64,000 bases of DNA from an uncultured Candidatus Rokubacteria bacterium (GCA_963841755.1 CAWJDX010000011.1:412604-476603); one strand, 5' to 3'; shown: positions 1-63,341, counted from the first letter of the stretch. Notes: generated from the sequence alone by a model not told the origin. A program made the numbers and translations.

Positions 1-1091
1 GGATCGCCTGGGTCTTGCGGTCGCTCGCGAAGCCGCCGCGGCGGGTGGCGGCCGCTCCGAGCGTGCGCGCATCGGTGTCGGGGGTGACCGGGCTCCCCAG
101 CGCCTCGCTGAGCCCCTCGAAGAAGGGCAGCCGGCGCCACGGCGGGGCCAGGCGCACCGTCTCGCCCTGGTAGGTCAGGGTGTCCGCGCCGAGGAGGGTC
201 TGGCCGAGGTGCAGGAACACCTCCTCGGTCAGCTCCATCAGGTCGTGGTAGTCGGCGTAGGCCTGGTAGAACTCGAGCATCGTGAACTCGGGATTGTGCT
301 GGGTGGAGACGCCCTCGTTCCGGAAGTTGCGATTGATCTCGTACACCCGGTCCAGGCCGCCCACCACCAGGCGCTTGAGGTAGAGCTCGGGCGCCACGCG
401 CAGGTAGAGCGGCATGTCGAGCGCGTTGTGGTGCGTCACGAAGGGCTTGGCCGCGGCGCCCCCCGGGATCGGCTGCATCATCGGGGTCTCCACCTCGAGG
501 AAGCCCCGCGCGTCGAAGAACGCGCGCAGGGTCGCGATGAGGCGGCTCTTCATGACGAAGGCCTCGCGGACCTGGGGATTGACGATCAGGTCGACGTAGC
601 GTCTGCCGGTAACGAGTTTCCACGTCCTTCAGGCCGTGCCACTTCTCGGGCAGGGGGCGGAGGGCCTTGGTCAGGAACTCGAACTGCTTCACCGCCACCG
701 TCAGCTCGGCGGTGCGGGTGCGGAACAGCTCGCCGGTGACCCCGATGAAGTCGCCCACGTCGAGATCCACGAAGGCCGCGTAGGCGGGGCCGAGCACGTC
801 GGCGCGGGCGTAGATCTGGATCTGGCCGGACTGGTCCCGCAGCACCGCGAAGCAGCTCTTGCCGTGGTGGCGCATCGCCATCACCCGCCCGGCCAGCGCG
901 ACCGGCCCCGCGCTCTGCAGCATCGCCTCGTCGGCGTCCTTGAATCGCGCCTGCAGCGTGCCGCCCCAGTGGGTGACCGGGAAGCGCGCCCCGAAGGGGC
1001 TCACGCCGCGCGCCCGCCAGGTCTCGAGCTTCTCGCGGCGGCGGCGCATCTGCTCGTTGGCGTCGGGGGGCAGGCCGGGGGACGTGGTCAT
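1..1091 (-). CDS. lysS: Lysine--tRNA ligase, N-terminal ~360 aa. The gene runs off the left edge. The frame is broken by an apparent 1-nt insertion near 602.
   Basis: Minus-strand translation from the ATG at 1089-1091 gives [25 protein letters not shown]...[14 protein letters not shown]. After a shift near 602 it continues as [21 protein letters not shown]...[27 protein letters not shown], which carries the class II LysRS motifs. The ATG overlaps the prfB stop (ATGA). It is absent from the ORF track because the stop lies outside the window. Confidence 0.8.
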
Positions 1092-2210
1092 GAGCGGGCG
1101 GTCAGGGCTGGGGCGGCGGGGCGCGCCGCGGTCAGGTAGGCGCGGATGAACGGGTCGAGGCCGCCGTCCATCACCGCCTCCACGTTGCCGATCTCCACGC
1201 CGGTGCGGTGGTCCTTGATGATCTGGTACGGGGCGAAGGTGTAGGTGCGGATCTGGCTGCCGAACGCGATGTCCTTCTTCTCCCCGGTCAGGTCGGCCAG
1301 CTCCTGCTTCTGCTTCTGCTCGTAGATCTGGAAGAGGCGCGACTTGAGGATGCGCATCGCGGTGTCGCGGTTGCGCAGCTGGGAGCGCTCGTTCTGGCAG
1401 GCCACCACGATGCCGGACGGCAGGTGGGTGATGCGCACCGCGGAGTCGGCGGTGTTGACCCCCTGCCCGCCCGGCCCCGAGGAGCGGTACACGTCGATCC
1501 GGAGATCCTCGTCGCGGACGACCACCTCCACGTCCTCGACCTCGGGAATGACCGCGACCGAGGCGAACGAGGTGTGGCGCCGTCGCGAGGCGTCGAACGG
1601 GGAGATGCGGATCAGGCGGTGCACGCCGGTCTCGCCCTTGAGATGGCCGTAGGCGTACTCCCCGGTCATCTCGATCGTCACCGACTTGATCCCCGCCTCC
1701 TCGCCCGCGAGCAGGTCCACCACCTCCGCCTTGAATCCGGCCCGCTCCGCCCACCGCAGGTACATGCGCATGAGCATCTGGGCCCAGTCCTGCGACTCGG
1801 TGCCGCCCGCTCCGGGGTGGATGGAGAGGATCGCGTTCTTGCGGTCCTGCGGCCGGGAGAGGATCACCTTCAGCTCGAAGGCCTCGACCTCCTCGCCGAG
1901 GCGCTTCAGGCTCTCCTGGATCTCGGCGGTCATGCTCTCGTCGCCCGCCTCGGTGGCCATCTCCCAGAGGAGGCGGTTCTCCTCCGCGCGGCCCGCGAGA
2001 TCCTTGAAGGTGCCGACGGTGCGGGCCAGCTCCGCGCGCTCCTGCACGACGGCCTGCGCCTTGCGACTGTCCTCCCAGAACGACGGGGCGGACATCTCGG
2101 CGTCGATCAGGCCGAGGCGGGTCTCCTTGGCCGGGACGTCAAAGATGCCCCCGGAGGTCGTCCAGACGCTTGTCCAGCTCCGCCACGTCTCGCTTCAGCT
2201 CGCCTAGCAC
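1088..2210 (-). CDS. prfB: Peptide chain release factor 2, made by a programmed +1 ribosomal frameshift.
   Basis: ORF 1088..2095 encodes the RF2 body (SPF-region context, [12 protein letters not shown]). A 22-codon upstream ORF (GTG near 2208-2210) ends ...RLDDLRGHL at a TGA at 2139-2141 and is joined by a +1 shift at CUU UGA C. Confidence 0.9.
2136..2152 (-). promoter_or_regulatory. prfB autoregulatory +1 frameshift site: an internal SD-like GGGGG, then CAU, then CUU UGA C.
   Basis: The minus strand reads CUC CGG GGG CAU CUU UGA C. The arrangement matches the E. coli prfB site (AGG GGG UAU CUU UGA C). The plus-strand gtcaaag lies at 2138-2144. Confidence 0.85.
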
Positions 2211-3750
2211 GTCGCGGGTGACCTCCGGAAGAAGGCAATGCCGGCTCCCGCGAGCCCGACGGCGGCGCAGGCATAGACCAGCCAGTCGCCGAGGCGCGCG
2301 TAGAGCGTCAAGGAGCCTCGCAGGGCGATGCGGTGATGGAGCACGCCGCGCGCCTGCAGGGGCAGCGTGGGACCGATCCGCCCGGCGGGATCGACGAAGG
2401 CGGAGACGCCGGTGTTGGCCGCGCGCGCGATCGCCACGCGCTGCTCGACCGCGCGGAGCGGCAGCATCCCCAGGTGCTGCCAGGGGCCCGCCGTCTCGCC
2501 GAACCACGCGTCGTTGGTGATGTTGGCCATGAATCTCGCTCCGCCGATCACGAAGCCCCGGAACAGCTCGGGGAAGATGATCTCGTAGCAGATCACGGTT
2601 CCGAACGGCGCGCCCGGCAGCGGAAAGACGGTCTGGGTGTCCCCTTCCCCGAATTCCGAGATGAACTCCGCCCAGCCCTTGACGAAGCCGAGCAGACCCG
2701 CGAGCGGAACGTACTCTCCGAACGGAACCAAGTGGATCTTATCATACTTGCCCGTAATCCCTTGTCCGGTCAGGAAAAATGCGCTGTTCAGGAACTGTCC
2801 CCGCGGCCCGTCGCGCCGGTCGATCGAGCCGACCAGGATGGGCGTGGCGATGTCCGCCGAGAGGCGCCGCAGCCGCTCGAGCAGCTCGGGGTCCCCGCGC
2901 AGGAAGATGGTGGTCGCGGTCTCCGGCCAGAGCACCACCGCGGGTCGCGTCGAGCGCCGCCTCCCGGGTGAGCCGCTCGTAGATGTCGAGGATCTGGGCG
3001 TGGCGCGCGGGATCCCACTTGATCGTCTGCTCGATCGCCGGCTGGATCACGCCGACGTCGACGGACCCCGCGTCCGCGCCGCGCGACGACGCCGAGCGCG
3101 TGCGCGCCGAAGCCGAGCGTGCCGGCCAGGAGCAGCGCCGCCACCGCGGCCCCCGGCCACGCCCGTCGCGGGCCGAGGGCGAGCAGCGCGGCCAGCGCCG
3201 CGCTCACCGCCGCGATCACGAGCGACACCGCGTACACGCCGCCCAGCTCCGCGATCTGGATCACCGGGAGCTGGGCGTGCTGGGAGTAGCCGAGCAGGCC
3301 CCAGGGGAATCCGCCCATGAGGTGCCCGCGCAGCCACTCCCCCACCACCCAGAGCGCGGGCGCGAGCGCCAGCGCGGGCCCGGCCCCGAGCCGCCGCGCG
3401 AGCCACGCGGTCGCGCCCGCCACCGCGCCCAGGTACAGGCCGCAGTACGCGGCCAGCGCCACGATCGGCAGCCACGTGACCGGCCAGGGGATCGCGCTGT
3501 AGTGGAGGAAGGTGTGATCGAGCCAGCGCAGCAGGACGACGTAGAACACGGTGCCGGCGAGCCAGCCGTCCAGGAGGGCGGCGCGCGGGGCGCGCGTGGC
3601 CCCCGAGACCAGCGCGGGCACGAGCCAGACCCAGGCGAGCAGCGACCAGTCGGTCTTCGGGAAGGCCAGCGCGCCCAGTACCCCCGAGAGCGCGAGGACG
3701 AGGAGGGACGCGGCGCGCGCCCGCCGGGAGAGCTCCGGCTCAGGCTCCAC
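2204..3750 (-). CDS. lnt: Apolipoprotein N-acyltransferase. The reading frame is split into three pieces by two single-base lesions, near 2950 and near 3075.
   Basis: The N-terminal transmembrane region is ORF 2788..3750 (MEPEPEL...GFGAHALGVVARRG). The middle is ORF 2742..3050 (IQPAIEQTIKWDPARHAQILDIYERLTREAALDATRG). The CN-hydrolase domain is ORF 2204..2938 (VLWPETA...ICYEIIFPE...). Each junction restores a continuous Lnt sequence if one base is removed. Confidence 0.8.
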
Positions 3751-6653: not shown

Positions 6654-7280
6654 CGGGTCCCCTCTCTCGCGTCCGGCCCCTTCGCGGGGGCCGGCGGCTC
6701 CCGCAGCTGCAAGACGCGCTGCACGTACTTGCCGATCATATCCATCTCGAGGTTCACCCGCCGGCCCCGCGTCAGTCCCCCCAGGGTGGTCGCGGCCAGC
6801 GTGTGCGGGATGACCATGATCTCGAAATCCCGCTCGTTGAGCCGCGCCACCGTGAGGCTGACCCCGTCCACCGCCACCGAGCCCTGCGGGATCAGCAGCG
6901 GGGCCAGCGCCTCGCCCGGCCATTCTATCGTGAGCCGGGCGGTCTCTGCCTGCCGGGTGAGCGCGGCCACCGTGCCCACTCCATCGACGTGCCCCTGGAC
7001 CAGGTGTCCGCCGACCATGCCCCCGAGCCGCATCGGGCGCTCCAGGTTGACCGGATCGCCGACCGCCAGGTCGCCGAGCGCGGTCCGCGCCAGCGTCTCG
7101 GGCCCGACGTCGAAGCGCAGCCGTGCCGGCGCCCACCTCGACCACGGTCAGGCAGGCGCCGTTCACGGCCACGCTCGCCCCCACGCCGCTGTCCTCGAGG
7201 ACCCGGTCGGCGCCGAGCACGAGACGGGAGCCCGCGCGCTCGAGCACCCGGCCCACTTCCTCGACCAGGCCGGTGAACAT
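6650..7280 (-). CDS. ribE: Riboflavin synthase alpha subunit. The frame is broken near 7125.
   Basis: The N-terminal half [22 protein letters not shown]...[17 protein letters not shown] sits in the long-ORF frame, with the ATG at 7278-7280. The C-terminal half is ORF 6650..7033 (...[27 protein letters not shown]...), continuing from an adjacent frame. Confidence 0.8.
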
Positions 7281-7281: not shown

Positions 7282-8377
7282 TCAGCGCTCCACCCGGCCT
7301 TCCAGCAGCCAGTCCTCGCCCAGCGGCCGCGCGGTGAGGTCGCTCAGGCGGAGGGCATCGCCCAGCCGAAGGCCGGGGCCGCCCGCCGGGGTCGGCGCGG
7401 CGGATCCGCCCAGGACCTTGGGGGCGACGAACGCGGCCACCCGGTCGACCAGGCCGGCCTGCACGAACGCGCCGGTCAGCTCGGCGCCGGCCTCGAGCAG
7501 CACCGCGATGACGTCGAGGGCGAAGAGCCGCGCGCTGAGGTCGACCACGTCCACCCGCCCGTCGCGGGACTTGCACTGCAGCACGGTCACGCCGCTCGAC
7601 GCCAGACCGGCCACCCGCGCGGCCGGCGCGTCCTCTCCCACCGCCACCAGGATGCGCGCGCGAGTGCCGGCGCGCAGCATGGCGGCCTCGAGGGGCAGCC
7701 GCGCGCGGCCGTCCACCACCACGCGATACGGCTCGCGCGGCCACGGCTGCTCCGAGCCGCACGGTGAGGGTCGGGTCGTCGGCGAGCACGGTGCCGATGC
7801 CGGTGACGATGGCGTCGGCCTCGCTCCGCAGCCGATGGGCCTCCCGGCGCGCCGCCTCTCCGGTGATCCACCGCGATTGCCGATCGTGGGCCGCGATCTT
7901 GCCGTCGAGGGTCATGGCCCACTTCGCGGTCACGTGGGGGCGCTGGAGCGCGGTCGCGGTGAAGAACGCGTGGTTCAGCTCCCGCGCTTCCCGCTCGAGG
8001 CAGCCCAGGTCGACCTCGATGGAGGCGGCGGCCAGCGCCGCGGCGCCCCCACCCTTCACGCGCGGGTTCGGATCGGGCGTGGCCGCGACGACCCGGCGCA
8101 CGCCCGCGCGGACGATGGCCTCGACGCAGGGCGGGGTGCGGCCCACGTGATTGCACGGCTCGAGGGTGACGTAGAGGGTGGCCCCCCGGGCCCGCGTCCC
8201 GGCCTCCTCGAGCGCGGCCGCTTCCGCGTGCGGGCCGCCGGCCCGCTCGTGGAACCGCTCGGCGATCACCGCGCCGTCCCGGACCACCAGGGCGCCGACC
8301 ATCGGATTGGGGGACGTGAGCCCCCGGCCGCGAGCGGCCAGGGCCAGCGCGCGGGTCATCCACCGGATGTCGTCCAT
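7282..8377 (-). CDS. ribD: Diaminohydroxyphosphoribosylaminopyrimidine deaminase / 5-amino-6-(5-phosphoribosylamino)uracil reductase. The frame is broken near 7745.
   Basis: The deaminase domain sits in ORF 7163..8521 from [32 protein letters not shown]...[11 protein letters not shown]...[18 protein letters not shown] (ATG at 8375-8377). The reductase C-terminus is ORF 7282..7722 (...[18 protein letters not shown]...). Confidence 0.85.
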
Positions 8378-9377: not shown

Positions 9378-10267
9378 GAGCCCGTCGTGGGCGGCGCGGG
9401 CAGCTCGAGGCGCTGGATCACCGTCCCCTTCGGCCCGAGCGGCGGCAGGGCCTTGCCGTTCAGCGTGACCTCGACGCCTCCCGCGTTGCCGATGGTCACG
9501 AGGAAGCGGCGCTCGGCCGCCCACTCACGGCTGGCCCCCGCGGGCAGGAGCTCCTCGGCGATCCGGCCCTCGTCGGTCTGCACGCGGACCCACGTGGGCT
9601 CCACCGCCCGGATGACCAGACGCTGCCCTCCGGTGGAGGTCGGACCCGAGGCCGGGCGGGTTGTGGTCGGAGCCGTGGGCGGCGGGGTGCCGGCGGGTGG
9701 AGCCATCGGCCGCGGAGGCTCCACCGTGGCCGCCGGCGCTGGAGGCGGCGTGGGAGCCGGTGTCGGTGCGGGCGCGGATGCGGCCGGTGGCGGTGCGACC
9801 GGCGCCGGGGCGGGAGCCGGAGTTGGGGCCGGGCTCGGAGGCGCCGGGGTCGAGGGCCTGGCAGGCTCCGTTCTGACGGTGGGCACTGAGGTTCCACCGT
9901 TCTTCTTGACACTGAGGTTGACCAGGATCAGCCCGACGCCCAGGATCAGCAGGAGCACGAGGCCGACCACCACCGAGCTGCTCGCCCATGTGTTGCGGGG
10001 CCGGGGCGGCGCGATCGCGGCCTGCTCCGCCGCTCGGGTCCCGGCCAGCTCCTGATAGCGGCCGAGGGCGGGCTCCGGGTTCTCGCGGAGGAAGCTGCAG
10101 TAGGCACGGATGAAGCCGCGCACGAAGACGGGCGACGGGAGGTCGGCGAGCCGCTCGTCCTCGAGGGCCTCCAGATGGCGGATCCCCACGCGGGTCGAGC
10201 GCGCCATGTCCTCGAGGGAGCCGCCCTTGGCCTCGCGGAGGGAACGTAGATACGCGCCGAGGGACAT
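9374..10267 (-). CDS. rodZ: RodZ-like cytoskeletal protein: an HTH-XRE domain, one transmembrane helix, a proline-rich linker and a C-terminal DUF4115-like domain.
   Basis: It is the C-terminal 297 aa of ORF 9374..12217: MSLGAYLRSLREAKGGSLEDMARSTRVGIRHLEALE...VVVGLVLLLILGVGLILV...PAPTPAPAPAP.... The upstream part of that ORF is a different-frame overlap of smc and is spurious. Confidence 0.7.
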   Translation of the reverse strand: MSLGAYLRSLREAKGGSLEDMARSTRVGIRHLEALEDERLADLPSPVFVRGFIRAYCSFLRENPEPALGRYQELAGTRAAEQAAIAPPRPRNTWASSSVVVGLVLLLILGVGLILVNLSVKKNGGTSVPTVRTEPARPSTPAPPSPAPTPAPAPAPVAPPPAASAPAPTPAPTPPPAPAATVEPPRPMAPPAGTPPPTAPTTTRPASGPTSTGGQRLVIRAVEPTWVRVQTDEGRIAEELLPAGASREWAAERRFLVTIGNAGGVEVTLNGKALPPLGPKGTVIQRLELPAPPTTGS

Positions 10268-13300: not shown

Positions 13301-13878
13301 AGCCGCTGCATGTTGAGCCGGGTCGCGTCGAGCTTGCCCTGGGTCTCGGAGCGCTGCTGCTTGTAGCGGGCGATGCCCGCCGCCTCCTCGATGAACATCC
13401 GGCGCTCCCACGGCTTGGCGGTCAGCACGTGGTTGAGGCGCTCCTGGTCCATGAGCGCGTAGGCCTTGGGATTGACCCCGGTGCCCGCGAAGAGATCCTG
13501 CACGTCCCGCAGGCGGCACACGTTGGTGTTGAGCAGGTACTCGCTCTCCCCGGTGCGGTACAGGCGCCGGGCCACCGCCACCTCGCTCCACGGCACGTTG
13601 AGGCCGCCGTCGTTGTTGAAGACGAGGCTGACCTCGGCCATGCCCACCATCTTGCGGGAGGCCGAGCCGTGGAAGATGACGTCTTCCATCTTGTTGCCAC
13701 GGAGGGTCTTCGGGCTCTGCTCGCCCAGGGCCCAGCGCATCGCGTCGGCCACGTTGGACTTGCCGCAGCCGTTCGGGCCGACGATGCAGGTGACCCCGGG
13801 GAAGACCTTCACGTCGGTCTTCTCGGCGAACGACTTGAAGCCGTGGATCAGGATCGATTCGAGTCGCATGACTGGCAC
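10312..13878 (-). CDS. smc: Chromosome segregation protein SMC.
   Basis: Intact 1188-aa ORF with the N-terminal Walker A (FPGVTCIVGPNGCGKSN), long coiled coils, a hinge, and the C-terminal signature and Walker B (LSGGEKALTGLALLFAI...VLDEVDAPLD). Confidence 0.9.
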   Translation of the reverse strand: MPVMRLESILIHGFKSFAEKTDVKVFPGVTCIVGPNGCGKSNVADAMRWALGEQSPKTLRGNKMEDVIFHGSASRKMVGMAEVSLVFNNDGGLNVPWSEVAVARRLYRTGESEYLLNTNVCRLRDVQDLFAGTGVNPKAYALMDQERLNHVLTAKPWERRMFIEEAAGIARYKQQRSETQGKLDATRLNMQRLRDVMEEVRRQLSSIERQARKAQQYKALQSERQGLDLALVAADYAALATQHDTVTREMESLRETEEQQRARVATLTGRQALQAAAIQDTEYRLGDLRQSVQKIQGEAERLLERREQMGLQIQDLLAEETRLEEEIRGLAERRVALSAERDDKSRALDEARQRHGRQDEEVRTVEAQIEACRSTLSERRERFEALRLEQIRVAGARADLTRSSGELRERRTQVDRRADRLAAELATARGEADTLAATRLRLEAARQRTGAQLSLLSTELHEIESARRDRETVRAEAQESLAGLRVKLAGRQSALEALERLEREREGYGAGVRAMFARTASGDLGGVVGTVADLLEVPNGLEAAVEAVLGDRLQWVVVERFEHARAALGYLEREGVGAATLLPLETLPSPAAVPEDSGEVSWATRLVGGPRPALLHYLLGRVGVVAHLDQAETLWRRNGVIATYVTRSGEVLSPSGRLTGGHRGSERQSNDQSLLGRKRAIRQLVEELRGLRRDVDTAAAHLETVEGEVAGLRARLEGIQSNYQAQETARLSGEKDLESVQRESDRIARHLETLAAENDQLAGERDETASQLLDLERALVAAAEQEAGLGGDMSALQALLESGQGDEAGLTDRLTGCRVELATVAERVDSLGRDIERIVSLERDFGLQQEQSVTRRAQTAERRADLATERERTDAQARDAVTERDRLEAEVAVIAEDHQRQLAERQAVDGELREVQQQLNALVSRLHQLDLMETEGRVRREELLQEARRRHAVETAEALLAAHDVARDLEEVRQRHEELSTKLEAMGPVNLVADEEFRELTERLDFLRTQHDDVVGSIKDLEKALRGMTRTAQERFQEAFDDINRHFGEIFSRLFEGGRAELRMVPPEEGEEDPLELGVELMAQPRGKRLQAVTLMSGGEKALTGLALLFAIFYHRPSPFCVLDEVDAPLDDANIHRFLRVLRELCTQTQFVVITHNRKTMEAADVLYGVTMEEPGLSRLVSVKLTEA

Positions 13879-13928
13879 GCCCGCAGGGCGTGTTTCATTG
13901 ATAACACACGGTCGGCGGATCGACCAAG

Positions 13929-13966
13929 AAAAAACCCCACGAGTGGGGGCCGCGGGGCCGCGGCGG
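13929..13966 (-). terminator. Intrinsic terminator downstream of secA.
   Basis: The minus-strand RNA has a GCCGCGG..CCGCGGC hairpin, then CCCCACUCGUGGGG, then UUUUUU, directly after the secA TAG at 13969-13971. Confidence 0.6.
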
Positions 13967-13968
13967 CA

Positions 13969-16854
<2,886 letters not shown>

Positions 16855-24291: not shown

Positions 24292-24389
24292 TCCTAAGGG
24301 CGCGAGTTGGGGCCCCCAGGGGGCCAAGAGGTGGAGCGGCGGTGGAAACGAAGTCAGGCATGAAAACGCAGTCAGAAAGGACGAATTCA

Positions 24390-25551
24390 ATGAAAAAGGT
24401 TCTCGCGAGTGTGTTGAGCGTGGTCACGATGGTCTCGCTCTCGGCCACGGTCGGGATGGCGCAGACCTCCTGCCCCGCCGAGGTGGCGTCGGCCAAGGCG
24501 ATGCTGAGCCAGACCGCCAAGGCTCAGGACGTGCAGGCACCCCGGTCGCTGGCGGGTGCGCGGCAGGACGTGCAGGCGCCGCGTAGCCAGGACATCCAGT
24601 CGCCCCGGAGCCAGGACGTTCAGGCGCCGCGGTCGCTGGCGGGTGCGCGGCAGGACGTGCAGGCGCCGCGTAGCCAGGACATCCAGTCTCCGCGTGGCCA
24701 GGACGTGCAGGCGCCGCGTGGTCAGGACGTCCAGTCTCCTCGTAGCCAGGACGTGCAGTCGCCCCGCAGCCAGGACATCCAGGCTCCCCGGTCGCTAGCG
24801 GGGGCGCGGCAGGACGTGCAGGCGCCGCGTAGCCAGGACATCCAGTCTCCGCGCAGCCAGGACGTGCAGGCGCCGCGCGGTCAGGACATCCAGTCTCCGC
24901 GCAGCCAGGACATTCAGTCGCCCCGGAGCCAGGACATCCAGTCTCCGCGCAGCCAGAACATCCAGTCGCCCCGCAGCCAGGACGTGCAGTCGCCGCGGAG
25001 CCAGGACATTCAGTCTCCGCGCAGCCAGGACATCCAGTCGCCCCGGAGCCAGGACATCCAGTCTCCGCGGTCGCAGGACGTCCAGTCTCCGCGCAGCCAG
25101 GACATCCAGTCGCCCCGTAGCCAGAACATCCAGTCGCCCCGCAGCCAGGACGTGCAGTCGCCCCGGAGCCAGGACATCCAGTCGCCGCGCAGCCAGGACA
25201 TCCAGTCGCCGCGGAGCCAGGACATCCAGTCTCCGCGGCAGCCAGGACGTGCAGTCGCCCCGTAGCCAGAACATCCAGTCGCCCCGCAGCCAGGACGTGC
25301 AGTCGCCCCGGAGCCAGGACATCCAGTCTCCGCGCAGCCAGGACATTCAGTCGCCCCGGAGCCAGGACATCCAGTCTCCGCGGTCGCAGGACATCCAGTC
25401 TCCGCGCAGCCAGGACATCCAGTCGCCCCGCTCGGCCGAGTTCAAGAAGGCCTCGACCCTCGTGAGCGAGGCTGAGGCGGCGTGCAAGGCGGGCAAGTCG
25501 TCCGTGGCGGCCGACAAGGCCAAGGCGGCGATGGAGCTGCTCAAGAAGTAA
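24390..25551 (+). CDS. Secreted tandem-repeat protein. It has a signal peptide, about 38 repeats of the octapeptide SQD(I/V)Q(S/A)PR, and a short helical C-terminal domain. The frame is broken inside the repeats near 25238.
   Basis: ORF 24342..25265 from the internal ATG at 24390 (AAGGA SD; MKKVLASVLSVVTMVSLSATVGMAQ...), joined to ORF 25249..25551 (...SAEFKKASTLVSEAEAACKAGKSSVAADKAKAAMELLKK). The junction unit ccgcggCagccagg carries one extra base compared with the neighbouring units. Confidence 0.7.
24520..25430 (+). repeat. Tandem array of about 38 units of 24 bp (consensus cagccaggacatccagtcgccccg), plus a few 39-bp variants carrying ctggcgggtgcgcgg.
   Basis: Direct reading shows contiguous in-frame units with no spacers. 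The variation is mostly at wobble positions and in I/V and S/A codons. Confidence 0.85.
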
Positions 25552-28608: not shown

Positions 28609-28626
28609 AATGGTGGAGGGTAAGGG
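28609..28626 (+). repeat. Left direct repeat (attL-like) of the tRNA-Ala-associated island.
   Basis: ATGGTGGAGGGTAAGGGA is identical to 39756..39773, which is the 3' end of tRNA-Ala. The left copy is embedded in an imperfect palindrome (ggtggagg...cctccacc). Confidence 0.6.
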
Positions 28627-28805
28627 AGCCTCTCCCTCCTCCACCGCCATCCTCGGAAGTGCGCGTCGTACCTGATCAGCACGCTACCGCTGTCCTTTCG
28701 CAATGAGTTGCGACCGGCGATGGTGTTCCTCTTCCATCGCGTGGCGTGCCCTTCACGCGATACCAACGAGACCAATGGGAAGGAGACCGAACTAGCTGCC
28801 TGACC

Positions 28806-29162
28806 TTACGCGCGGGCGTAGTTGCTCGCCCCGAACCAGTCGACGACCACGACGGGTTCATTGCCGACGACCCACGCGTCGTGGCCGGAGGGCAACGCGG
28901 TCACGTCGCCGGGAAGGGCGTCGAACTCCGAGCCGTCGGACATGACGATGTGCAACGTGCCCGACACGTGGTACTGGAAGTGGGGTGCTTCGCACCAGGC
29001 CGTTTTCGCGATCGGCTTCACGTGCTCCGACCACTTCCACCCGGGCTGGAGCGTGAGCTTCCCCACCACGCCGCCGCCGATGTTGACCAGTTCCGCCTTC
29101 CCCTTTGGGAACTCTTGAACTTGGTCCGGTTTGCCGAACAGCTTGTGCTCCGCAGATGCCAT
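28806..29162 (-). CDS. Cupin-domain protein.
   Basis: Intact 118-aa ORF (MASAEHKLFGKP...HFQYHVSGTLHIVMSDGSEF...). Its GC and codon usage look lower than in the core genes. Confidence 0.75.
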   Translation of the reverse strand: MASAEHKLFGKPDQVQEFPKGKAELVNIGGGVVGKLTLQPGWKWSEHVKPIAKTAWCEAPHFQYHVSGTLHIVMSDGSEFDALPGDVTALPSGHDAWVVGNEPVVVVDWFGASNYARA

Positions 29163-29601: not shown

Positions 29602-29624
29602 GGCAGGGGCAGTAAACTGAAGGC

Positions 29625-33355: not shown

Positions 33356-33375
33356 CCCTCCGGCAGAGTCAGTAA

Positions 33376-34418: not shown

Positions 34419-34924
34419 CGGCGCGAACTCGTCTCCGGAGTTCCGGGAGGCGGCGGAGCGGCCGGTGGCGTTCCAGGCCTGGGCGTCTCAGCAGCAGTTG
34501 TAGGCCGCGTCGCAGCAGACTGGGCGGATCCTCGATATCGCTGCGCTTCGTCGTCCCGATGGACAGGGACGTGCAGTGCCGCCCTAGCGGATCATAGAGG
34601 TCCAGGCCACCCATCGCTGTAGAGTCTCGTTCCGAAAACCCCTCCCTGCCGCCCCGAAAGTGCGCACCGAGTCAGAGCTCCGCCCCCCGTGAAGTCCCGT
34701 GCCGAAATCAGGTGATTCCGGGACAGCCAGACCGTACCTCTCGGTCTAGCCGGGTGGCGTCGCTCCGGGAACGGCGTCATGGTCCCCGCGCCATGATCTC
34801 GTCCCGGATGGCCTGACGAGCAGGGTCGCCCGATCCCCGCCTACCCCTGCCCGCGCTGCGGTCTCGTCTCGCAGTCAAAGGTTTCTCTCGAGAGAACCCC
34901 AGCTCATAGTGCTGCTTGGCTTGA

Positions 34925-36187: not shown

Positions 36188-36360
36188 GGGATACCTCCCT
36201 GAGCGGACGGTCGGACGCAGGCAGACTACCGCAGCATCCTCGGCTGAACCAAGAGCTTTCGATCCCAGCAGGTGTGCTTACTGTGTACGTCCCTGCCGTA
36301 GCTTCCGAGATGGCCTCGCGGGCCACCCGCAGGAGCAGGTGACGAGCCGACGCGGACGGT

Positions 36361-36954
36361 CTATGCCCTGTTCCTCGGGTCCCACCCGCGCTCCTCCACC
36401 CGGTAGTCCCGCTGCCGGACCTTGAGCCACGAAAGCGACCGCCCACCGAGATACGGTGAGGATTCATCCTTGCCGACCATGCCCTCGTAGCCGCGCTCGA
36501 GCACCTGCTGCCATGCCTTGAGCCCTTTGTCGGCCAGCCGCCGCGCCGGGAACAGCAGTGTGTGGTCGTTCTCCAGGAGCCGTTCGAGCTCTGCCCGTCG
36601 CTCTCGTAGCGGCAGCGGCCGCAGGTCGCGCCGATCCAGGTACAGGCAGTCAAAGGCTATGTAGACCGGCGGGGTCGAGGCGGCATCCTCCGGACGCTTG
36701 CGGAACCACTCGAACCGCGAGATCAGCTGCTCGTCGAAGATCGCCACTTCCCCGTCGAGGATCAGGGTCAGGACCGGAAGGGCGCGGATCGCGGCGGCCA
36801 GCTCCGCGAACCGCCGCGCGTGGTCCTTGCCGGCCCGGCTGATCAGCCGGACGTGGGTGCCGTCCTTGTAAGCGACCATGCGCCAGCCACCGTACTTCTC
36901 CTCGTACACCCAGCCGTCGCGGTGAAACGGCTGGGCGACTTCGGTGGACTGCAT
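36361..36954 (-). CDS. ATP-dependent DNA ligase family protein (LigD-like). It has only the NTase domain and its motif I is degenerate.
   Basis: The 197-aa ORF starts at the internal ATG at 36952-36954. It has motif III (LDGEVAIFDE), motif IIIa (YIAFDCLYLDRRDLRPLPLRERR), motif IV (EGMVGKDESSPY) and motif V (WLKVRQ). Motif I reads EEKYGGWR rather than KxDGxR. There is no OB domain. Confidence 0.7.
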   Translation of the reverse strand: MQSTEVAQPFHRDGWVYEEKYGGWRMVAYKDGTHVRLISRAGKDHARRFAELAAAIRALPVLTLILDGEVAIFDEQLISRFEWFRKRPEDAASTPPVYIAFDCLYLDRRDLRPLPLRERRAELERLLENDHTLLFPARRLADKGLKAWQQVLERGYEGMVGKDESSPYLGGRSLSWLKVRQRDYRVEERGWDPRNRA

Positions 36955-37155
36955 GGGGTCAACCTTGGGGAGGTTGGTCACCCTTCCAGTGTACGGGCCG
37001 GGGGAACCCGGGCCGGCTTGGCGGGATGCACGATGCTGGCCCGCAGTCGCAGGTGATCCACACGCGATCCGGCTCGACGGCGGCGTCCAGATCGCCACAG
37101 CGGCGATGCTCCTGGAGGAAGGCGTCGAGGGTGGCGAGCAGCTCGGGCATCGGGA

Positions 37156-38148
37156 CTACTCGATCACCTGGTCCGCCCGCTGGAGGAGCGACGGCGGGAT
37201 CGTCAGGCCGAGCGCCTTGGCGGTCTTGAGGTTGATGACCAGCTCGAACTTCGTGGGCTGCTCGATCGGGAGGTCTCCGGGGCTCGTCCCCTTCAGGATC
37301 TTATCGACGTAGGTTCCGGCCCGCCGGTTCAAATCGGGAATGCTCGCTCCATAGGCGACGAGGCCACCAAGCTCGACAAACTCCGTTGCATTGAACATCG
37401 AGGGTAGGCGGTGGCTCGCGGCGAGTCCGACGAGACGGCGTCGCTCATAGTAGAACATCGGGCTGGGAAAGGTGACGAGGGCACCGGCATGCTCCTTGGT
37501 CATCGTAGAGAATGCACGGTCCAACTCGTCGGAGGTCCGCACCCCGACAGGAATAAGCTGTACTTTCAGTGCCTGCGCGACCGCGCCAGTTTCCTTGAAC
37601 ATCTCGCGAGTTGTGGGTTCGCCGAAGGCGCCCGGATGCCAGAGGGTAGCGACCCGAGACGCTCTGGGAACTACCTCCTTCAGAAGTTCGAGACGCTTGG
37701 GGACTAGCCCCGGGCCGAGGAACGTAGACCCCGTGATGTTTCCCCCGGGCCGCGCGAGGCTGGCAACGAACCCGTCCCCTACTGGATCACCCAACGCGGG
37801 TGCAACGATGGGGATCGTCGTGGTCGCTTGCCGAACCGCCCGGGCGACAGGGGTACTCGCGGCGACGATGACATCGACTTTGAGGCGGACGAGTTCAGTG
37901 GCCAAATCTGGTAGCCTCTCCAGTCTTCCTTCCGCTGCCCGGTACTCGATGATGATGTTCTGCCCCTCCACGTAGCCATGTTCCCGAAGTCCTCGACGAA
38001 GGTCATCAGGACGCGAGTCACGTGATTCAAATGAACCGGCTATCAGGTAACCGATCCGTGGAGGTTTCGCACCCGTCTGTGCCTTGGCGGTAAACGGCAC
38101 CGCCACGAGCCCGCCTGCCACGGTCCCGATGAAGCCCCGCCTGTCCAC
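37156..38148 (-). CDS. ABC transporter substrate-binding protein (PF04392 family) with a twin-arginine signal.
   Basis: Intact 330-aa ORF with an MDRRGFIG Tat motif and the conserved C-terminus LTIPPSLLQRADQVIE. Confidence 0.8.
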   Translation of the reverse strand: MDRRGFIGTVAGGLVAVPFTAKAQTGAKPPRIGYLIAGSFESRDSRPDDLRRGLREHGYVEGQNIIIEYRAAEGRLERLPDLATELVRLKVDVIVAASTPVARAVRQATTTIPIVAPALGDPVGDGFVASLARPGGNITGSTFLGPGLVPKRLELLKEVVPRASRVATLWHPGAFGEPTTREMFKETGAVAQALKVQLIPVGVRTSDELDRAFSTMTKEHAGALVTFPSPMFYYERRRLVGLAASHRLPSMFNATEFVELGGLVAYGASIPDLNRRAGTYVDKILKGTSPGDLPIEQPTKFELVINLKTAKALGLTIPPSLLQRADQVIE

Positions 38149-39122
38149 TACTCGATCACCTGATCCGCCCGCTGGAGGAGCGACGGCGGGATCGTCAAGC
38201 CGAGGGCCTGGGCGGTCTTGAGGTTGATGACGAGTTGGAACGTGGTCACCTGTCGGATAGGTACCTCGCTGACCGGCGTCCCCCGAAGAATCGTGTCGAC
38301 GGTCTCAGCGAGCAAGCGGTAAAGCTCGCGGAGGTCGTAGCCGTAAGAGAGGAGGCCGCCGAGTGGGGCGAAGTCCGAGAGCTCGCAGATCGTGGGGATT
38401 CGATGCTTCAAGGCAAGGTCCGCCACTGTCTTTCGGTGGAGGCCCACAAGGCGGCTGCGCAATACCAGGACCCCTTGAGCGCGTCCGGCTCGAAGCGCCA
38501 AGAATGCCGGGTCAAGATCCTCGACGCGAAGAACTGGCTCGATCCGGAGGCGGATACCCAACGCCTTCCCACTCGTTTCGGCTACTCGGACAGCCGCGCT
38601 GACCTCAGATCCTCCCTTGAGGACGCCTGCCCGAGAGAGACCTGGGATGGCCTCTTTCATGAGGGCCAACTGCTTGCCAACAACCTCGGGCATCAGGGTC
38701 TGGGTTCCGGTGACGTTGCCGCCAGGTCTGGCGACGCTGGCCGCGAGCCCGCTCTCCACGAGATCTTCCGCTTCAGACACGACGATCGGGATCGTTCGGG
38801 TCACCTTCTGCAGGAGCTTGGCATGGAGGTCACCTGAGACGACGAACATATCCACGCGCGATCGCAGAAACTCGGCGGCCAGGTCGGGAATGCGCTCGGG
38901 CTGATCACCATAGGTTCGGCGTTCGACAACGAAGTGCTGCCCGTAGACCCAACCAAGCAGTCGCATCCGGTCGTACCATTGCCCCTCGCCCGGTGGGGTG
39001 CTCGGTAACCCGGCAAGGAATGATCCAATCCGGTACACCTTCCCAACCTGCTGCGCCTCGACGGCGAGCGGCGCGGCGAGGAGGCTGCCGGCCAAGGTGC
39101 CGATGAATGCACGTCGGTCCAC
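38148..39122 (-). CDS. ABC transporter substrate-binding protein (PF04392 family), a tandem paralog with a twin-arginine signal.
   Basis: Intact 324-aa ORF with MDRRAFIG and the same C-terminal motif. Its stop and the downstream start overlap by 1 nt. Confidence 0.8.
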   Translation of the reverse strand: MDRRAFIGTLAGSLLAAPLAVEAQQVGKVYRIGSFLAGLPSTPPGEGQWYDRMRLLGWVYGQHFVVERRTYGDQPERIPDLAAEFLRSRVDMFVVSGDLHAKLLQKVTRTIPIVVSEAEDLVESGLAASVARPGGNVTGTQTLMPEVVGKQLALMKEAIPGLSRAGVLKGGSEVSAAVRVAETSGKALGIRLRIEPVLRVEDLDPAFLALRAGRAQGVLVLRSRLVGLHRKTVADLALKHRIPTICELSDFAPLGGLLSYGYDLRELYRLLAETVDTILRGTPVSEVPIRQVTTFQLVINLKTAQALGLTIPPSLLQRADQVIE

Positions 39123-39755
39123 TACGAAGCCCTCACTTGGCCGCGTCGTTTAGGAGGGACAGGGCGGGGCGGCCAGCGGCACGACCTTACACCAAGAGGC
39201 CGAGAGAGAGCAGCCTAGTAGTAGTCTCGCATCCGGCCAACCTGCTGGTGCAGGCGTTTGCGACGCCAAAGATAGGTGTTCCGATTGTGTAATGCCCTGT
39301 GCCTAGACGCCATAACTACTATGTCGATAGATGCCTCGTGCCCGCACGGACCGTCAACGTTGGCAGGAGGAAGTAGCAGAGCTGCCCGAACAGATCGATC
39401 GCTGGCAATCCGAGTTGACAACGCTCTCCCCCGGTGACCGCGTGCGGCGGGAGATGCTGGAGTGGACAATCCCGGCGGCTCGGCTGCGGAGGAGACGGTG
39501 GCAAAGTGGATCGAGCAGGCGGACACCGAATCGACCTAGCCGCACCACCCCGTGCGCCGGGTGCGGTGTTGTCGGGCCTCCGTGAGGCAGGCGGGCCGGC
39601 ATGCGGGTCTCAGTCTACGGGTCCCAACCCACGAGGGCCGAGTGAGCCTAGATGCGGTGCTGGCCGGCGTCCACTCACGTCCACCGGCGTCCACGCTATC
39701 CGACGCCGATGGGGTGAGGGCAGGTCAACTACGCGATTTTCCGCGTGAGGAATTC

Positions 39756-39773
39756 ATGGTGGAGGGTAAGGGA
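39756..39773 (+). repeat. Right direct repeat (attR-like), which is the 3' terminal 17 nt of tRNA-Ala plus 1 nt.
   Basis: It is identical to 28609..28626. Confidence 0.6.
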
Positions 39774-39832
39774 TTCGAACCCTCGACCTCGGCGTTGCGA
39801 ACGCCGCGCTCTCCCAACTGAGCTAACCCCCC
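39757..39832 (-). tRNA. tRNA-Ala (anticodon CGC), with an encoded CCA.
   Basis: The minus strand reads GGGGGGTTAGCTCAGTTGGGAGAGCGCGGCGTTCGCAACGCCGAGGTCGAGGGTTCGAATCCCTTACCCTCCACCA. The cloverleaf folds, the anticodon loop is TTCGCAA, and the G3:U70 alanine identity pair is present. Confidence 0.9.
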
Positions 39833-49531: not shown

Positions 49532-49564
49532 CTCGGGGGTCGATCGGTCGGCTCAACAGGAGGC

Positions 49565-50442: not shown

Positions 50443-52805
50443 TTACTTCTTCGATTTGGCGGCCTGGGCGGTCTTCCAGACCCGCTCCGGCGTCATCGGC
50501 ATGGCGTCGATGTGATCCACGCCGAGCCCGGACAGGGCGTCCACCACCGCGTTGACCACCGCCGGCGTCGAGGCGATGGTGCCGGTCTCTCCCGCGCCCT
50601 TCACGCCCAGCGGATTGACCAGGGTGGGCGTCTCGGTGCGATCGGTCTCGTAGAAGGGCAGCATGTCGGCCTTGGGCAGCGTGTAGTCCATCATGCTGCC
50701 GCTGACGAGCTGGCCGGAGTCTCCGTCGTAGACCGCCTCTTCCCAGAGCGCCTGCGCGACGCCCTGGGCGATGCCCCCGTGCACCATGCCGTCCACGATC
50801 ATCGGGTTGATGACGTTGCCGACGTCGTCGACCGCGAGGTAGCGGAGGATCTTCACGTGGCCGGTGTCCGGATCCACCTCCACCACGCAGGCGTGGGCCC
50901 CGAACGGGAAGCAGAAGTTGGAGGGATCGTAGAAGCTCGTCTCCTCGAGACCGGGCTCCACCCCCTCCGGGTAGTTGTGCGGCACGTACGCGGTCAGCGC
51001 GACCTGGCCGAACGGGATCGCCTTCTGGGGCGACCCCTTGACCACGAAGTTGCCGCCCACGTACTCCATGTCCTTCGGGTTCGCCTCGAGGAGATGGGCC
51101 GCGATCTTCTTGCCCTTCTCCTTGATCTTGTCGAGCGACATCACGATCGCGGTGCCGCCCACCGAGGCCGAGCGGCTGCCGTAGGTGCCCATGCCGAACG
51201 GTACCCGGCCGGTGTCGCCGTGCACGATCTCGATGTCGTCCATCGGGATGCCGAGCGAGTCGGCCACGATCTGGGCCATCGTCGTCTCGTGCCCCTGCCC
51301 GTGCGAGTGCGAGCCGGTGAAGACGCTGACCTTGCCGGTCGGGATGCACCTGGACCTTGCCGGACTCCCAGAGCCCGGCCTGGGCTCCGAGCGAGCCGAC
51401 GACCTTGGAGGGCGCGATGCTGCAGGCCTCGATGTAGGTCGAGAAGCCGATGCCCATCAGCCGGCCCTGCGCGCGGGCCGCGGCCTGGTCGGCCCGGAAC
51501 TTCTTGTAGTCGAGCATCGTCAGCAGCTTGTCGAGGGCGCCGCCGTAGTTGCCGCTGTCGTAGGAGAGCGCCACCTTCGTCTGGTAGCCGTTGTCGAACT
51601 TGGGGATGAAGTTCTTCCGGCGGATCTCGACCGGGTCCATCTTGAGCGCGGCCGCCGCCGCGTCCATCATGCGCTCGAGCAGGTAGCAGGCCTCGGGGCG
51701 CCCCGCCCCGCGGTAGGCGTCCACCGGGGTGGTGTTGGTGAAGACCCCGGTGACCTCCGCGTGGATCGCGGGCCACTCGTACACCCCGTTGAGCAGGGTG
51801 GCGTAGAGATAGGTCGGCACCGCCGGCGCGAAGGTGGAGAGGTAGGCGCCCAGGTTCGCGGTGGTCTTCACCCGCAGCCCCAGGAGCTTGCCGTCCTTCG
51901 CGACCGCGACCTCGGCGTCGGTCACGTGATCCCGCCCGTGGGCGTCGGTCTGGAAGGCCTCGCGGCGCGACGACGTCCAGCGGATCGGCCGCTTGATCTG
52001 CTTGGTGGCCCAGGTGCAGACCGTCTCCTCGTTGTAGAGGAAGATCTTGGAGCCGAAGGCGCCGCCCACGTCGGGCGCGATGACCCGCACCTTGTGCTCC
52101 GGGATGCCGAGCACGAAGGCGGTCATCAGGAGCCGGTGCACGTGGGGGTTCTGCGAGGTCACCCAGAGCGTCCAGTCTCCCGGTGGAGTCGTCGTAGCGC
52201 GCCACGCAGGCGCGCGGCTCCATCGGATTGGCCACCAGGCGCTGGTTGATGATGCGCTTCTTCACCACCACCGGGGCCGCCTTGAACGCGGCGTCGGTCG
52301 CGGCCGCGTCGCCGATCTGCCACTTGAAGGCCTCGTTGTTCGGGGCCACCTCGTGGATCTGGACCGAGCCCTTGGCGGCCGCCTTCTCGGTGTTGGTCAC
52401 CGAGGGCTGGACGTCCCAGTCGACCACCACCAGCTCCGCCGCGTCGCTCGCGGCCGACTGGCTCTCCGCGATGACGATGGCCACCGGGTCGCCCACGTAG
52501 TGGGCCGCGTCGGAGGCGAGCGGCATGTGGGGCGGGATCTTCAGCTCGGGCAGGAGCCAGCCGCACGGCAGCGAGTTCACCCCGGCCATGTCCTTGCCGG
52601 TGAAGATCGCGACGACGCCCGGGGCCTTCGACGCCTTGCCGGTGTCGATCTTGCGGATCTTGGCGTTCGCGTGCGGGCTGCGCACGAAGACCGCGTGGGT
52701 CAGGCCGGCCAGCTTCAGGTCGTCGGTGTAGTTGCCCTTGCCGGTGATGAACCGGGGGTCCTCACGCCGCTTGATGCTCGCGCCGAGCACACGCGCGGTG
52801 GCCAT
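50443..52805 (-). CDS. coxL: Molybdopterin-binding large subunit with the form-II CODH-like active-site loop AYRGAGR. The frame is broken near 51355 and near 52170.
   Basis: Three consecutive ORF pieces lie in three frames: 51141..52805 ([29 protein letters not shown]...), the middle of 49565..52162 (...[15 protein letters not shown]...[21 protein letters not shown]...) and 50443..51279 ([14 protein letters not shown]...[20 protein letters not shown]...). Each junction reads through if one base is removed. Confidence 0.8.
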
Positions 52806-58110: not shown

Positions 58111-58114
<4 letters not shown>

Positions 58115-60540: not shown

Positions 60541-60630
60541 AAGCGGAAAGCTAGTCGTCGCCCAGCGTGAAGGCGGAGGCGCAGAGAAATCCGAACGCGA
60601 ACACCACGACTACCACCAGGTACGTCCACA
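60541..60630 (-). CDS. Small hydrophobic peptide (29 aa), hypothetical.
   Basis: MRFVWTYLVVVVVFAFGFLCASAFTLGDD. GGAGGA lies 9 nt upstream. A hairpin-U8 element lies just upstream (about 60700-60745), on the same strand. Confidence 0.25.
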
Positions 60631-60886
60631 CGAAGCGCATGGGTCATGGTCCTCCGACGCGGAGTATTCTCCGGTGACTCGCGCTCCGCGACGGCAAAAA
60701 AAACTCCGATCCCCTCGGCCCCACCCGTAGTGGTGGGTGCCGCGAACGCGACCAGATGCACGGAAGACCCGACCGTCCCGGGTCGGACATTCCTTCCGAC
60801 TCCAGGAGCGACGTCTTTCCTCGTCCGCGTAAGTGTCGACGCAGGAGTCCTTCTCGGATCGGCACGGGCTTGCCTCCCCACTATTC

Positions 60887-61332: not shown

Positions 61333-61554
61333 GTGAAACGAGACGGGCATGCTCCATGCGTATTCGCGAGACCACGATGCCGGCCTCCGAGGAGTCTCTC
61401 ACGCTGCGAGAAGTGCGGGCGTGCCCTCGCGACCCGGCTGCGACGCGAGGGCGATCGGGTGCGCACGTACCTCGAGTGCCCCGACTGTACCCGGCCTAGC
61501 GACGATCGGCCCGGATCGGAGCCGGCCGAGCCGGCAGCGCCGCCCGGGGAGTGA
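61333..61554 (+). CDS. Small zinc-ribbon protein (CxxC...CPDC). The 5' frame is uncertain.
   Basis: ..SRCEKCGRALATRLRREGDRVRTYLECPDCTRPSDD... The GC3 bias suggests the true N-terminus (MPASEESLTL...) lies in the adjacent frame, with a one-base frame change near 61395. Confidence 0.35.
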   Translation: MKRDGHAPCVFARPRCRPPRSLSRCEKCGRALATRLRREGDRVRTYLECPDCTRPSDDRPGSEPAEPAAPPGE

Positions 61555-62378
61555 TCGGAGCCTTGCGCGCCTCATCGGCCGCGGACCTCAGCTCCCCGCT
61601 CCGTCGCTCGAGGGCCGCGAGCGCTCGACGCATGGCGGCCACGCGTCGCTCCGCCGCCTGAGCCGCCCGCTCCGCCCGATCGGCCTGTTGCGCGAGAGAC
61701 CGCGCCGCGCGTGTCGCCCGCTGCTCCTCGCGTGCGGCCAGCCGCGCGGCGCGCGCCTGCTCGCGGGCGAGGCGGCGAGTCTCTCCCGGGTCGCTCGCGG
61801 GAGCGGGCCTGGCGGGAGCGGGCTTGGCGGAGAGGCTTGGCCGGACCGGCGGAGTGCTTCTTCCGCGGCCGGTCGAGAAGGAACCCGGCCGGAACCGGAC
61901 CTCCCGAGAGGACCGCGAATCCCGGCTCGGCGTGCTCGTCAGCCAGGCGAGCGGCCTCGAGATCGGCGCGCAGACCTCGATCGGTGACCGCGGCCAGCAG
62001 CGTGCTCCGGATTCGCCGGTCGAGCGCGGCCGACACCGCCGCGCCGGCCTCCCGCAGCGCCTGACTCGCGCCGCGCACGAGCGGCTCGAACGCGCTCCGA
62101 TACCGCTCCATGGCCGCGCGGAGATCGCCCCCGCCCAGCTGGGCGCGACGGAGCCGGTCGACCGCGTCGACGAGCGCGCCGAGCTCCCGCGGCCGGGCGG
62201 CCGCGGCGCGGTTGAGCGCCCAGGCGACCGGGCTCGGGCGTCGGAGCCGCGCGACCTGCCGCGCCTCGGCGGCCTTCCCGTCCTTCGCGAGCTGCGCGGC
62301 GAGCGCATTCCGCGCGCCGACGAAGTCGCGCGGCGGCACCGCGCGTAGCGCGTCGGCCGGGCTCGCCTTCGGCTTCAT
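61496..62378 (-). CDS. Hypothetical Ala/Arg-rich protein with a C-terminal coiled coil. The frame is broken near 61815.
   Basis: The N-terminal part is ORF 61572..62411 from MKPKASPADALRAVPPRDFVGARNALAAQLAKDG.... The C-terminal part is the end of ORF 61496..62308 (...RLAREQARAARLAAREEQRATRAARSLAQQADRAERAAQAAERRVAAMRRALAALERR...). The ATG overlaps the GNAT stop (ATGA). Confidence 0.5.
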
Positions 62379-62961
62379 CGCGGTCGCGAGTCCTCGGCGA
62401 GCAATGCCCATCGCTCGTGGTCCGCCCAGCGCCCCGCGATCTCGAGATACCGCGGCGAGTACCCTTCCCGGCGGAATCCGGCGTGCCGGACCAGGGTGAG
62501 CGAGGCTCGATTCACCGGCAAGATGTTGGCCTCGACCCGATGCAGGCCCAGGGTCCGGAAGGCGTGGCGGAGCGCGAGCTGCAGAGCTTCCGTCATGTAG
62601 CCTCGCCTCGCGTGAGCGGCCCCGATCCAGTAGCCCAGGTAGGCGCTCTGGGCGGGGCCGCGAACGATCTCGTTCAGGTTGATGGCGCCGACGATGGCCC
62701 CGTCATCGAGGCGGCAGATCAGGAGCTTCTCGTGTCGGCCGCCCCGCGCCGACGCCACCCAGTCGGCGAACCGCGGGCCGCGGAGCGCGTGGCGATCGGA
62801 CGCGGCTCCCAGCGCCTGAGGAACCGGGCGCTGTCTCGCCGGAGGGCGAGATACTCGTCCCGATCACGCGCGGCCGGCTTCCTCAGGAAGACTCGCTCGC
62901 CAACCAGCGATCCGCATTGGCCGTCGGGGCATGTGGCGCGCCGCCGCGCTACCGCGATCAC
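62375..62961 (-). CDS. GNAT-family N-acetyltransferase (RimJ/RimL-like). The frame is broken near 62790.
   Basis: The N-terminus is ORF 62719..62961 (...LVGERVFLRKPAARDRDEYLALRRDSARFLRRWEP...). The C-terminus is ORF 62375..62758 (...HEKLLICRLDDGAIVGAINLNEI...GYWIGAAHARRGYMTEAL...). Confidence 0.65.
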
Positions 62962-63341
62962 GGGGCGGCGCCGGCGATGAGCGGTCCGCGAGAGGTTTGG
63001 CGACGATCATCACCGCGAGAGCTCGGCGTCCTGATGCGTAGGCATCTCAGAGCTTGCTCAAGACGTGGCAGCGGGCTTGCAGGAAGGCTGACGAGGTGGG
63101 CCGCGATGCCTGCCGGGCCTGGGCGCTCGGATCGTTGTGCATGGCCCCGAGGTGGAGTTGACGGGCACAATCGGACAAATGATTTCCCGGATGATCGGTT
63201 TGCCAAACCCCCAGCTTTCGTGGGCGGCCCGTGGATAAGTCGGTGGGCTCGTGCCGCTCCGGCTCGCGATTTCGCGCACTAAGAGCAAGTCGCCTTGTTT
63301 CTGTGCAATCCCGCTGAACCGCGATTCGCGATCGCGGCCGG

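Follow-up and report, generated by a model that had tools for sequence, protein, structure and literature searches.

Within a 64,000-nucleotide stretch of an uncultured Candidatus Rokubacteria bacterium (GCA_963841755.1 CAWJDX010000011.1:412604-476603; hereafter, the window), we found 17 one-base insertions, two one-base deletions and one net loss of two bases within 16 genes, among them secA, lysS and the riboflavin genes ribBA, ribE and ribD; one additional inserted base is silent. From sequence comparison, these lesions are very probably insertion or deletion (indel) errors of the consensus, introduced by base calling or polishing of the deposited metagenome-assembled genome (MAG) contig, with the genes intact in the living organism. 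A preliminary description of the window had counted at least 16 single-base frame disruptions; alignment and Viterbi decoding bore this out and showed it to be a slight under-count (about 20 in 16 genes).

The window has a guanine-plus-cytosine (GC) content of about 72%, and nearly all of its genes lie on the minus strand. As relatives we used soil-metagenome contigs from independent samples with 90-98% nucleotide identity to the window, up to eight per site. L001-L006 and L170-L173 match window 39.7-58.8 kb at 96-98% nucleotide identity, L090, L091, L148, L092-L094, L097 and L098 match 1-19.5 kb at 90-97%, and L167-L169 match 57.9-64 kb at 95-97.5%; the lesion alignments drew on L001-L006, L090, L091, L148, L092-L094, L097 and L167-L169. 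A genome scan with the repaired RibBA assigned the window to the Methylomirabilota; the best species-representative matches were L007 and L008, with 81% and 79% protein identity, respectively.

Six-frame Viterbi decoding on codon-position GC content (GC3) provided an independent call of frame switches. Of the 18 previously noted coordinates, 15 had a decoder switch no more than 10 nt away; the xdhC and coxL switches lay within 11 nt, and 61395 and 61815 were not resolved. Junction translations showed conserved motifs carrying on in the adjacent frame, and tblastn searches with open reading frames (ORFs) of L007 and L008 gave query-contiguous, frame-switching matches in lysS, lnt (twice), ribBA, ribE, ribD and secA, and a continuous match in smc. 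Nucleotide alignment to the close relatives localised each lesion that they cover to 1-3 nt. The lesions are as follows, with the Pfam domains of the repaired proteins.

606..607, minus strand, lysS: +1; codon CGC/CGG became CGGC; base absent in 4 of 4 close relatives; tRNA-synt_2 (residues 157-332) crosses the junction.
2951..2952, minus strand, lnt: +1; Leu codon CTC (L093) or CTG (L148, L090 and L091) became CTCG; CN_hydrolase (233-476) crosses the junction.
3084..3086, minus strand, lnt: +1; Val codon GTG (L093) became GTCG; net +1 against 5 of 5 relatives.
6094, minus strand, ribBA: +1; GAG became GCAG; DHBP_synthase (11-201) unbroken.
7122..7124, minus strand, ribE: +1; relatives GGC-AGA or GGC-CGG, window GGC-A-CGG; base absent in 7 of 7 relatives; Lum_binding domains present.
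7752..7753, minus strand, ribD: +1; CTC GAG became CTC G GAG; 7-8 relatives compared; RibD_C (147-358) crosses the junction.
14559, minus strand, secA: +1; GCC CAC became GCC G CAG; SecA_SW (661-879) crosses the junction.
25237..25238, plus strand, SPRSQD(I/V)Q repeat protein: +1; Arg codon CGC or CGG in neighbouring repeats, here CGGC.
40724, minus strand, NfeD stop codon: +1, silent; TAG became TAA+G; base absent in 3 of 3 relatives.
45870, minus strand, xdhC: -1 with an adjacent substitution; GAT GCG became GAC -CG, against 5 of 5 relatives; with one base added, XdhC_C (200-341) crosses the junction.
51341..51344, minus strand, coxL: +1; His codon CAT in five relatives and CAC in L002, window CATC; MoCoBD_2 (427-716) unbroken.
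52178, minus strand, coxL: +1; GGG GAC became GGG A GAC, against 6 of 6 relatives; MoCoBD_1 (150-399) unbroken.
54306, minus strand, larC: +1; GAC CGG became GAC G CGG; Ni_insertion (4-401) unbroken.
54940, minus strand, larB: +1; CAC became CATC; the repaired protein of 252 amino acids (aa) has the AIRC domain.
55595, minus strand, larE: +1; GAG became GCAG, against 4 of 4 relatives.
56191, minus strand, larE codon 5: +1; GTG GCC became GTG A GCC, against 4 of 4 relatives.
59019 and 59052, minus strand, mtaB: two +1; ACG became AGCG and CGC became CGCC, against L167, L168 and L169.
61396..61397, plus strand, codon 7 of a zinc-ribbon ORF (about 58-67 aa): +1 with a substitution, against L167 and L169.
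61828..61833, minus strand, Pro-rich hypothetical protein (289-305 aa): two -1; net -2 against L167 and +13 against L169; frame broken.
62774, minus strand, GNAT gene: -1 with an adjacent substitution; Acetyltransf_3 recovered over 1-138 of 138.

The extra base proposed earlier for lysS, lnt, ribBA, ribE, ribD, secA, coxL, larC, larB and larE was confirmed by the relatives, although alignment placed the second lnt site at 3085 rather than 3075. At xdhC, where an extra base had also been proposed, comparison with all five relatives showed that the window lacks a base. Two sites had been thought to lack a base: this held for GNAT, whereas mtaB carries two insertions, 33 nt apart, that jointly mimic a -1; the relatives encode an intact 441-aa MtaB. 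A tentatively listed site at 61395 was substantiated as the insertion at 61396/7, and larE codon 5 joined the list as a new entry. The zinc-ribbon ORF, which after repair reads MPASEESSRCEKCG..., owes its name to CxxC motifs, its Pfam match being sub-threshold (E=0.0074, 16.3 bits versus a cutoff of 27). The insertion at 25238, outside the relatives' coverage, was placed by the 24-nt repeat register: with one base deleted there, the repeats stay in register and a 437-codon ORF, C-terminal tail included, is recovered. After single-base repair, one Pfam domain spans most junctions, and repaired ORF lengths match those of the relatives (Lnt about 517-548, SecA 951, CoxL 786, LarC 416, LarB 252, LarE 280, XdhC 363, MtaB 441 and RibBA 405 aa).

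Every relative-covered lesion is private to the window. The preliminary description had proposed comparison with orthologous loci, and the relatives read straight through every covered site. We applied the same automated test to 35.3 kb of window coding sequence for which two or more other contigs were available and to about 133 kb from 13 relatives; it returned 20 private frame-breaking indel events in the window versus two across the relatives, whose called genes have uniform, full, normal lengths. The relatives have blemishes of their own: a split arginase gene in L001 (14996-16038), a 29-nt deletion in ribBA of L093 (about 4569), one private +1 in L090 (about 14885) and a 117-aa GNAT call in L167 (6504-6857). 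Short-read metagenome contigs are thus not error-free, but their rate lies about 40-fold below that of the window. Within window genes, insertions outnumber deletions 17 to about 3-4. Private intergenic indels (13873-13983, 16880/16899, 45710, 47972, 49539, 54606 and 60547-60866) are balanced between gains and losses, and ordinary homopolymer changes occur among them, in keeping with natural variation. Private homopolymer length differences at 49535-49539 (G4 versus G5) and 60696 (A8 versus A9), both intergenic, were the sole homopolymer-type indels seen and could be natural or classical long-read errors.

The lesions are also present in the public record. An exact look-up in a collection of 15 billion public proteins recovered the 961-aa frameshifted SecA ORF, including the out-of-frame tail that follows from the insertion at 14559, and matched truncated forms of MtaB (300 aa), CoxL (278, C-terminal), LarC (304), RibBA (214, C-terminal), Lnt (244, C-terminal), RibD (146) and GNAT (127). 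Each broken ORF was found on one 572,859-bp contig, with NCBI and ENA as sources, and the window's intact RecN, NfeD, agmatinase, PNP, PfkB, CoxE, IscS and CoxD were on a contig of that length. The window is thus a slice of this contig, and because the broken ORFs already stand there verbatim, the lesions are those of the public assembly and not engineered ones. The preliminary description had ranked sequence error or planted lesions above pseudogenes; the first part of that ranking stood, given private lesions and unrelaxed selection, and the second fell with the look-up. Lesions introduced in silico into a clean sequence might well be single-base, mostly insertions, untied to homopolymers and situated in recognisable genes, as seen here. 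However, besides the deposited ORFs with their SecA tail, the non-uniform distribution and the coincidence of 3-4 insertions with relatives carrying exactly both adjacent bases (P about 0.01 under random planting) argue against deliberate planting, to which we assign a negligible probability.

The pattern of substitutions allowed us to ask whether the broken genes are decaying. The share of window-private substitutions that fell at codon position 3 was 77% upstream of lesions, 79% downstream of them and 80% in intact genes (Fisher p=0.90), and the substitution rate downstream of lesions was not raised (1.64% versus 2.07%). The broken genes contained no nonsense mutations and no larger deletions. 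The equal codon-position-3 bias downstream of lesions and in intact genes indicates that selection was never relaxed. Real, very recent frameshifts in a mutator or decaying lineage under massive pseudogenisation would agree with the presence of the lesions in the deposited sequence, with the occurrence of the 127-aa GNAT form on other contigs and with the natural length variability of the Pro-rich repeat at 61828. By contrast, such a process would have struck single-copy housekeeping genes together (secA, lysS, ribBA/E/D, lnt and mtaB) and left only one or two one-base lesions per broken gene, with codon-position bias and substitution rate as in intact genes and with all other sampled population members intact. 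It would also have favoured insertions over deletions by about 5:1 while avoiding homopolymers; the indel spectra known from bacteria show the reverse of such an insertion excess with homopolymer avoidance. We therefore consider pseudogenisation very unlikely. Genome decay as in Mycobacterium leprae or recent host-restricted pathogens likewise interrupts many genes in a short stretch, but it does so with mixed lesions, relaxed selection and loss of dispensable genes, whereas the window shows single-base lesions in essential genes with unchanged selection signatures.

Alternatively, the extra bases might be real and bypassed during expression by programmed +1 ribosomal frameshifting, quadruplet decoding, transcriptional slippage or RNA editing. 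That 17 lesions share one sign (+1), in genes otherwise under purifying selection, is what such a mechanism would produce. Yet the insertion sites have no common motif after correction for multiple testing and lack homopolymer or slippery contexts, the frameshift is conserved in no orthologue even at 2-5% divergence, and -1 and double lesions occur as well. Moreover, recoding on such a scale, with about 20 unrelated sites within 64 kb, is not known to us from any bacterial genome, which further counts against it. The preliminary description had deemed recoding implausible, and the lack of a shared motif and of any conserved frameshift in orthologues sustains that judgement; we put its chance close to nil. 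A motif shared by the insertions, whether as a recoding signal or as a source of methylation-motif errors, was sought in its own right: GCAG/CTGC seemed enriched (5 of 17 insertions), but nothing survived Bonferroni correction. Programmed +1 frameshifting of the prfB type and transcriptional slippage in endosymbionts resemble the window in that an extra base interrupts a conserved ORF. In those systems, however, the slippery or homopolymer site is conserved and orthologues keep the frameshift; neither holds for the window. A viable Rokubacterium that truly carries the extra bases in its DNA and expresses about 15 genes, secA and lysS among them, by way of a lineage-specific +1 correction, such as quadruplet decoding at third-position 'doublets' or single-base deletional RNA editing, is similarly far-fetched.

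Consensus error is thus the reading we favour, and its source can be narrowed only in part. A 573-kb contig from soil would point to long-read sequencing, and about one indel per 3 kb would suggest a low-coverage assembly without short-read polishing. Consensus indels in nanopore-only assemblies lead to frameshifted gene calls, and bins below 40-fold coverage need short-read polishing (PMC9262707); in a very large set of long-read soil MAGs, one round of Medaka was the sole polishing (PMC12313526). The window is like such long-read-only genomes and MAGs, with their IDEEL-type problem, in having only indels, genes split into adjacent-frame pieces and tens of events per 100 kb on a long contig from a complex community; it is unlike them in that its lesions lie outside homopolymers and are overwhelmingly insertions (PMC9262707). 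Plain random long-read consensus errors from low coverage, unlinked to strain variation, are a variant of the artefact explanation and not a competitor to it. Their frequency of about one per 3 kb and indel-only character fit unpolished long-read MAGs (PMC9262707), and the available relatives show no polymorphism at 52178, 54306, 54940, 55595 and 56191. This variant does not account for the lack of homopolymer association, the uneven distribution, with an 11-kb island free of lesions where about 3.8 would be expected, or the coincidence of insertions with known alleles described below. We hold it to be possible, somewhat short of an even chance.

Strain variation offers a second route to such errors. 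If co-assembled strains differed by a single-nucleotide polymorphism (SNP), the consensus might retain the two alleles next to each other. On the coding strand, the four-letter 'codon' at 12 of 17 insertions can be read as two codons differing only at position 3 (for example, CGGC, CTCG, GTCG, GCCG, CATC, GGGA and GTGA); ten of the 12 pairs are synonymous, and the other two (GACG) are Asp/Glu. Adjacent window bases equal the relatives' alleles at 2952 (CTC/CTG), 51343 (CAT/CAC) and 7123 (AGA/CGG; window A+CGG), and more distant relatives add 606 and 7753 as tandem-allele sites. Such coincidence occurred at 3-4 of 15 sites versus 0.45 expected (about 0.03 per site; P about 0.01-0.001). The available relatives are monomorphic at at least seven insertion sites. 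A strain-specific island would escape errors of collapse, as observed. Three lesions are 'complex', pairing an indel with an adjacent substitution (deletions 45870 and 62774, insertion 61397). Where allelic variants were collapsed in a long-read assembly, apparent frameshifts and INDEL or complex errors resulted (PMC8445201). In that case, Trypanosoma brucei Lister 427, apparent frameshifts lay at or next to variant sites, similar to the SNP-plus-indel combinations (45870, 61397 and 62774) and repeat-length variants (61828 and 25238) of the window; T. brucei is a diploid eukaryote, however, whereas the window's 'alleles' would be those of co-existing soil strains, with 3-4 sites tied to known polymorphism (PMC8445201). 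We judge a tandem-allele origin for many of the insertions to be about as probable as its opposite.

Several observations weigh against consensus error or its strain-collapse form. A check of homopolymer context had been suggested in the preliminary description, and it placed no lesion within a run of at least three identical bases; such runs hold 12.9% of coding bases, and 11 of the 17 insertions do not duplicate a neighbour. Nanopore indels, unlike the insertions here, are mainly homopolymer errors in the cited literature. The lesions are unevenly spread: seven lie in 0-17 kb and about 13 in 45.8-63 kb, with one in 17-45.8 kb between them, which would not be expected of errors arising uniformly at random. 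Support for tandem alleles comes from 3-4 sites, and insertions adjoining codon position 3 (12 of 15 versus 10 expected) were not significantly enriched. Finally, some lesions may be natural: the truncated 127-aa form of GNAT is common to more than ten other contigs, and the lesion at 62774 may be a natural variant rather than an error, as may the lesions at 61828/61833, in a Pro-rich repeat (61815-61833) that varies in length among relatives.

Three regularities were considered and dropped. Homopolymer slippage and classical Nanopore or 454 homopolymer errors were ruled out by the lesion contexts. A rule that insertions always follow codon position 3 reduced to 7-9 of 15 at the 3|1 slot once placement ambiguity was allowed, which is not significant. 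Nor was there a significant excess of substitutions near lesions, as 6 of 18 had one within 3-4 nt versus about 22% expected.

For users of this assembly, the lesions are almost certainly not a biological feature, and the organism's secA, lysS, rib, cox and lar genes are almost certainly intact. Their value is that of a curation and quality warning: with roughly one frame-breaking indel in every 3 kb of a public 573-kb MAG contig, gene calls, completeness and pseudogene statistics would be wrong without frameshift-aware annotation or polishing, as would pathway inferences for riboflavin, CO dehydrogenase and LarBCE. The tandem-allele pattern, if borne out by reads, would give long-read metagenome consensus sequences a recognisable and correctable mark of strain collapse.

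Outside the lesion-bearing genes, complete Pfam domains were found in the middle of the window for smc, recN, nadK, a tlyA-like gene, a rhomboid gene, two M16 genes and ftsY, and for the recognisable genes of the island except a partial ligase ORF (32979-33302). The earlier statement that smc, recN and the island genes are intact therefore holds as far as it is testable, this ORF aside. In the island and at 19.5-26.7 kb, lesions might have escaped notice because relatives are lacking there, but the local genes give complete Pfam domains.

The island itself (28610-39832) is about 11 kb of low GC content (61-65% versus 72%), is absent from L002 and L003 and contains no lesion. It adjoins a transfer RNA (tRNA) gene, tRNA-Ala(CGC), at 39757-39832 on the minus strand, and the 18-nt sequence ATGGTGGAGGGTAAGGGA, from the 3' end of the tRNA, flanks it as a direct repeat (28610-28627 and 39756-39773). 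These repeats are the scar of a tRNA-targeted integration; no integrase was recognised in the island. Among the cargo are a response regulator, a PLD-family protein, a PEP-CTERM protein, an ATP-dependent DNA ligase, a ligase fragment, a SnoaL/DUF4440 protein and two ABC_sub_bind paralogues, together with a 420-aa ORF (34925-36187) that has no Pfam match. The ligase fragment, on the plus strand at 32979-33302, is an isolated piece, about 100 residues long, from the adenylation domain of an ATP-dependent DNA ligase (profile positions 16-98 of 204), followed by about 750 nt without convincing ORFs. We found no downstream Pfam domain in another frame that would indicate an extra frameshift in either the island DNA ligase (36.1-37.1 kb) or the fragment, and the latter looks like a genuine gene remnant.

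In the repeat protein that carries the insertion at 25238 (24342-25551, plus strand), the 8-residue unit SPRSQD(I/V)Q recurs about 35 times in tandem, with a 24-nt period, ahead of a short non-repeat C-terminal tail. The protein is predicted to be secreted, on the basis of an N-terminal hydrophobic, signal-peptide-like stretch judged by eye, and its sole Pfam match is a weak one to the T4 gp5 C-terminal repeat. At 62961-63050, between the SBP_bac_5 and GNAT genes, the window lacks about 1.15 kb with an ABC_sub_bind gene that is present in L167 and L169, representing either a natural structural difference or an assembly deletion. Lastly, a gene at about 9391-10241 has a low-complexity middle (9626-9843) at which relatives differ from the window by multiples of three bases (3, 15 and 24 nt) and the GC3 decoder briefly switches frame. 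Its reading frame stays open there, which indicates natural length variation and not a lesion.

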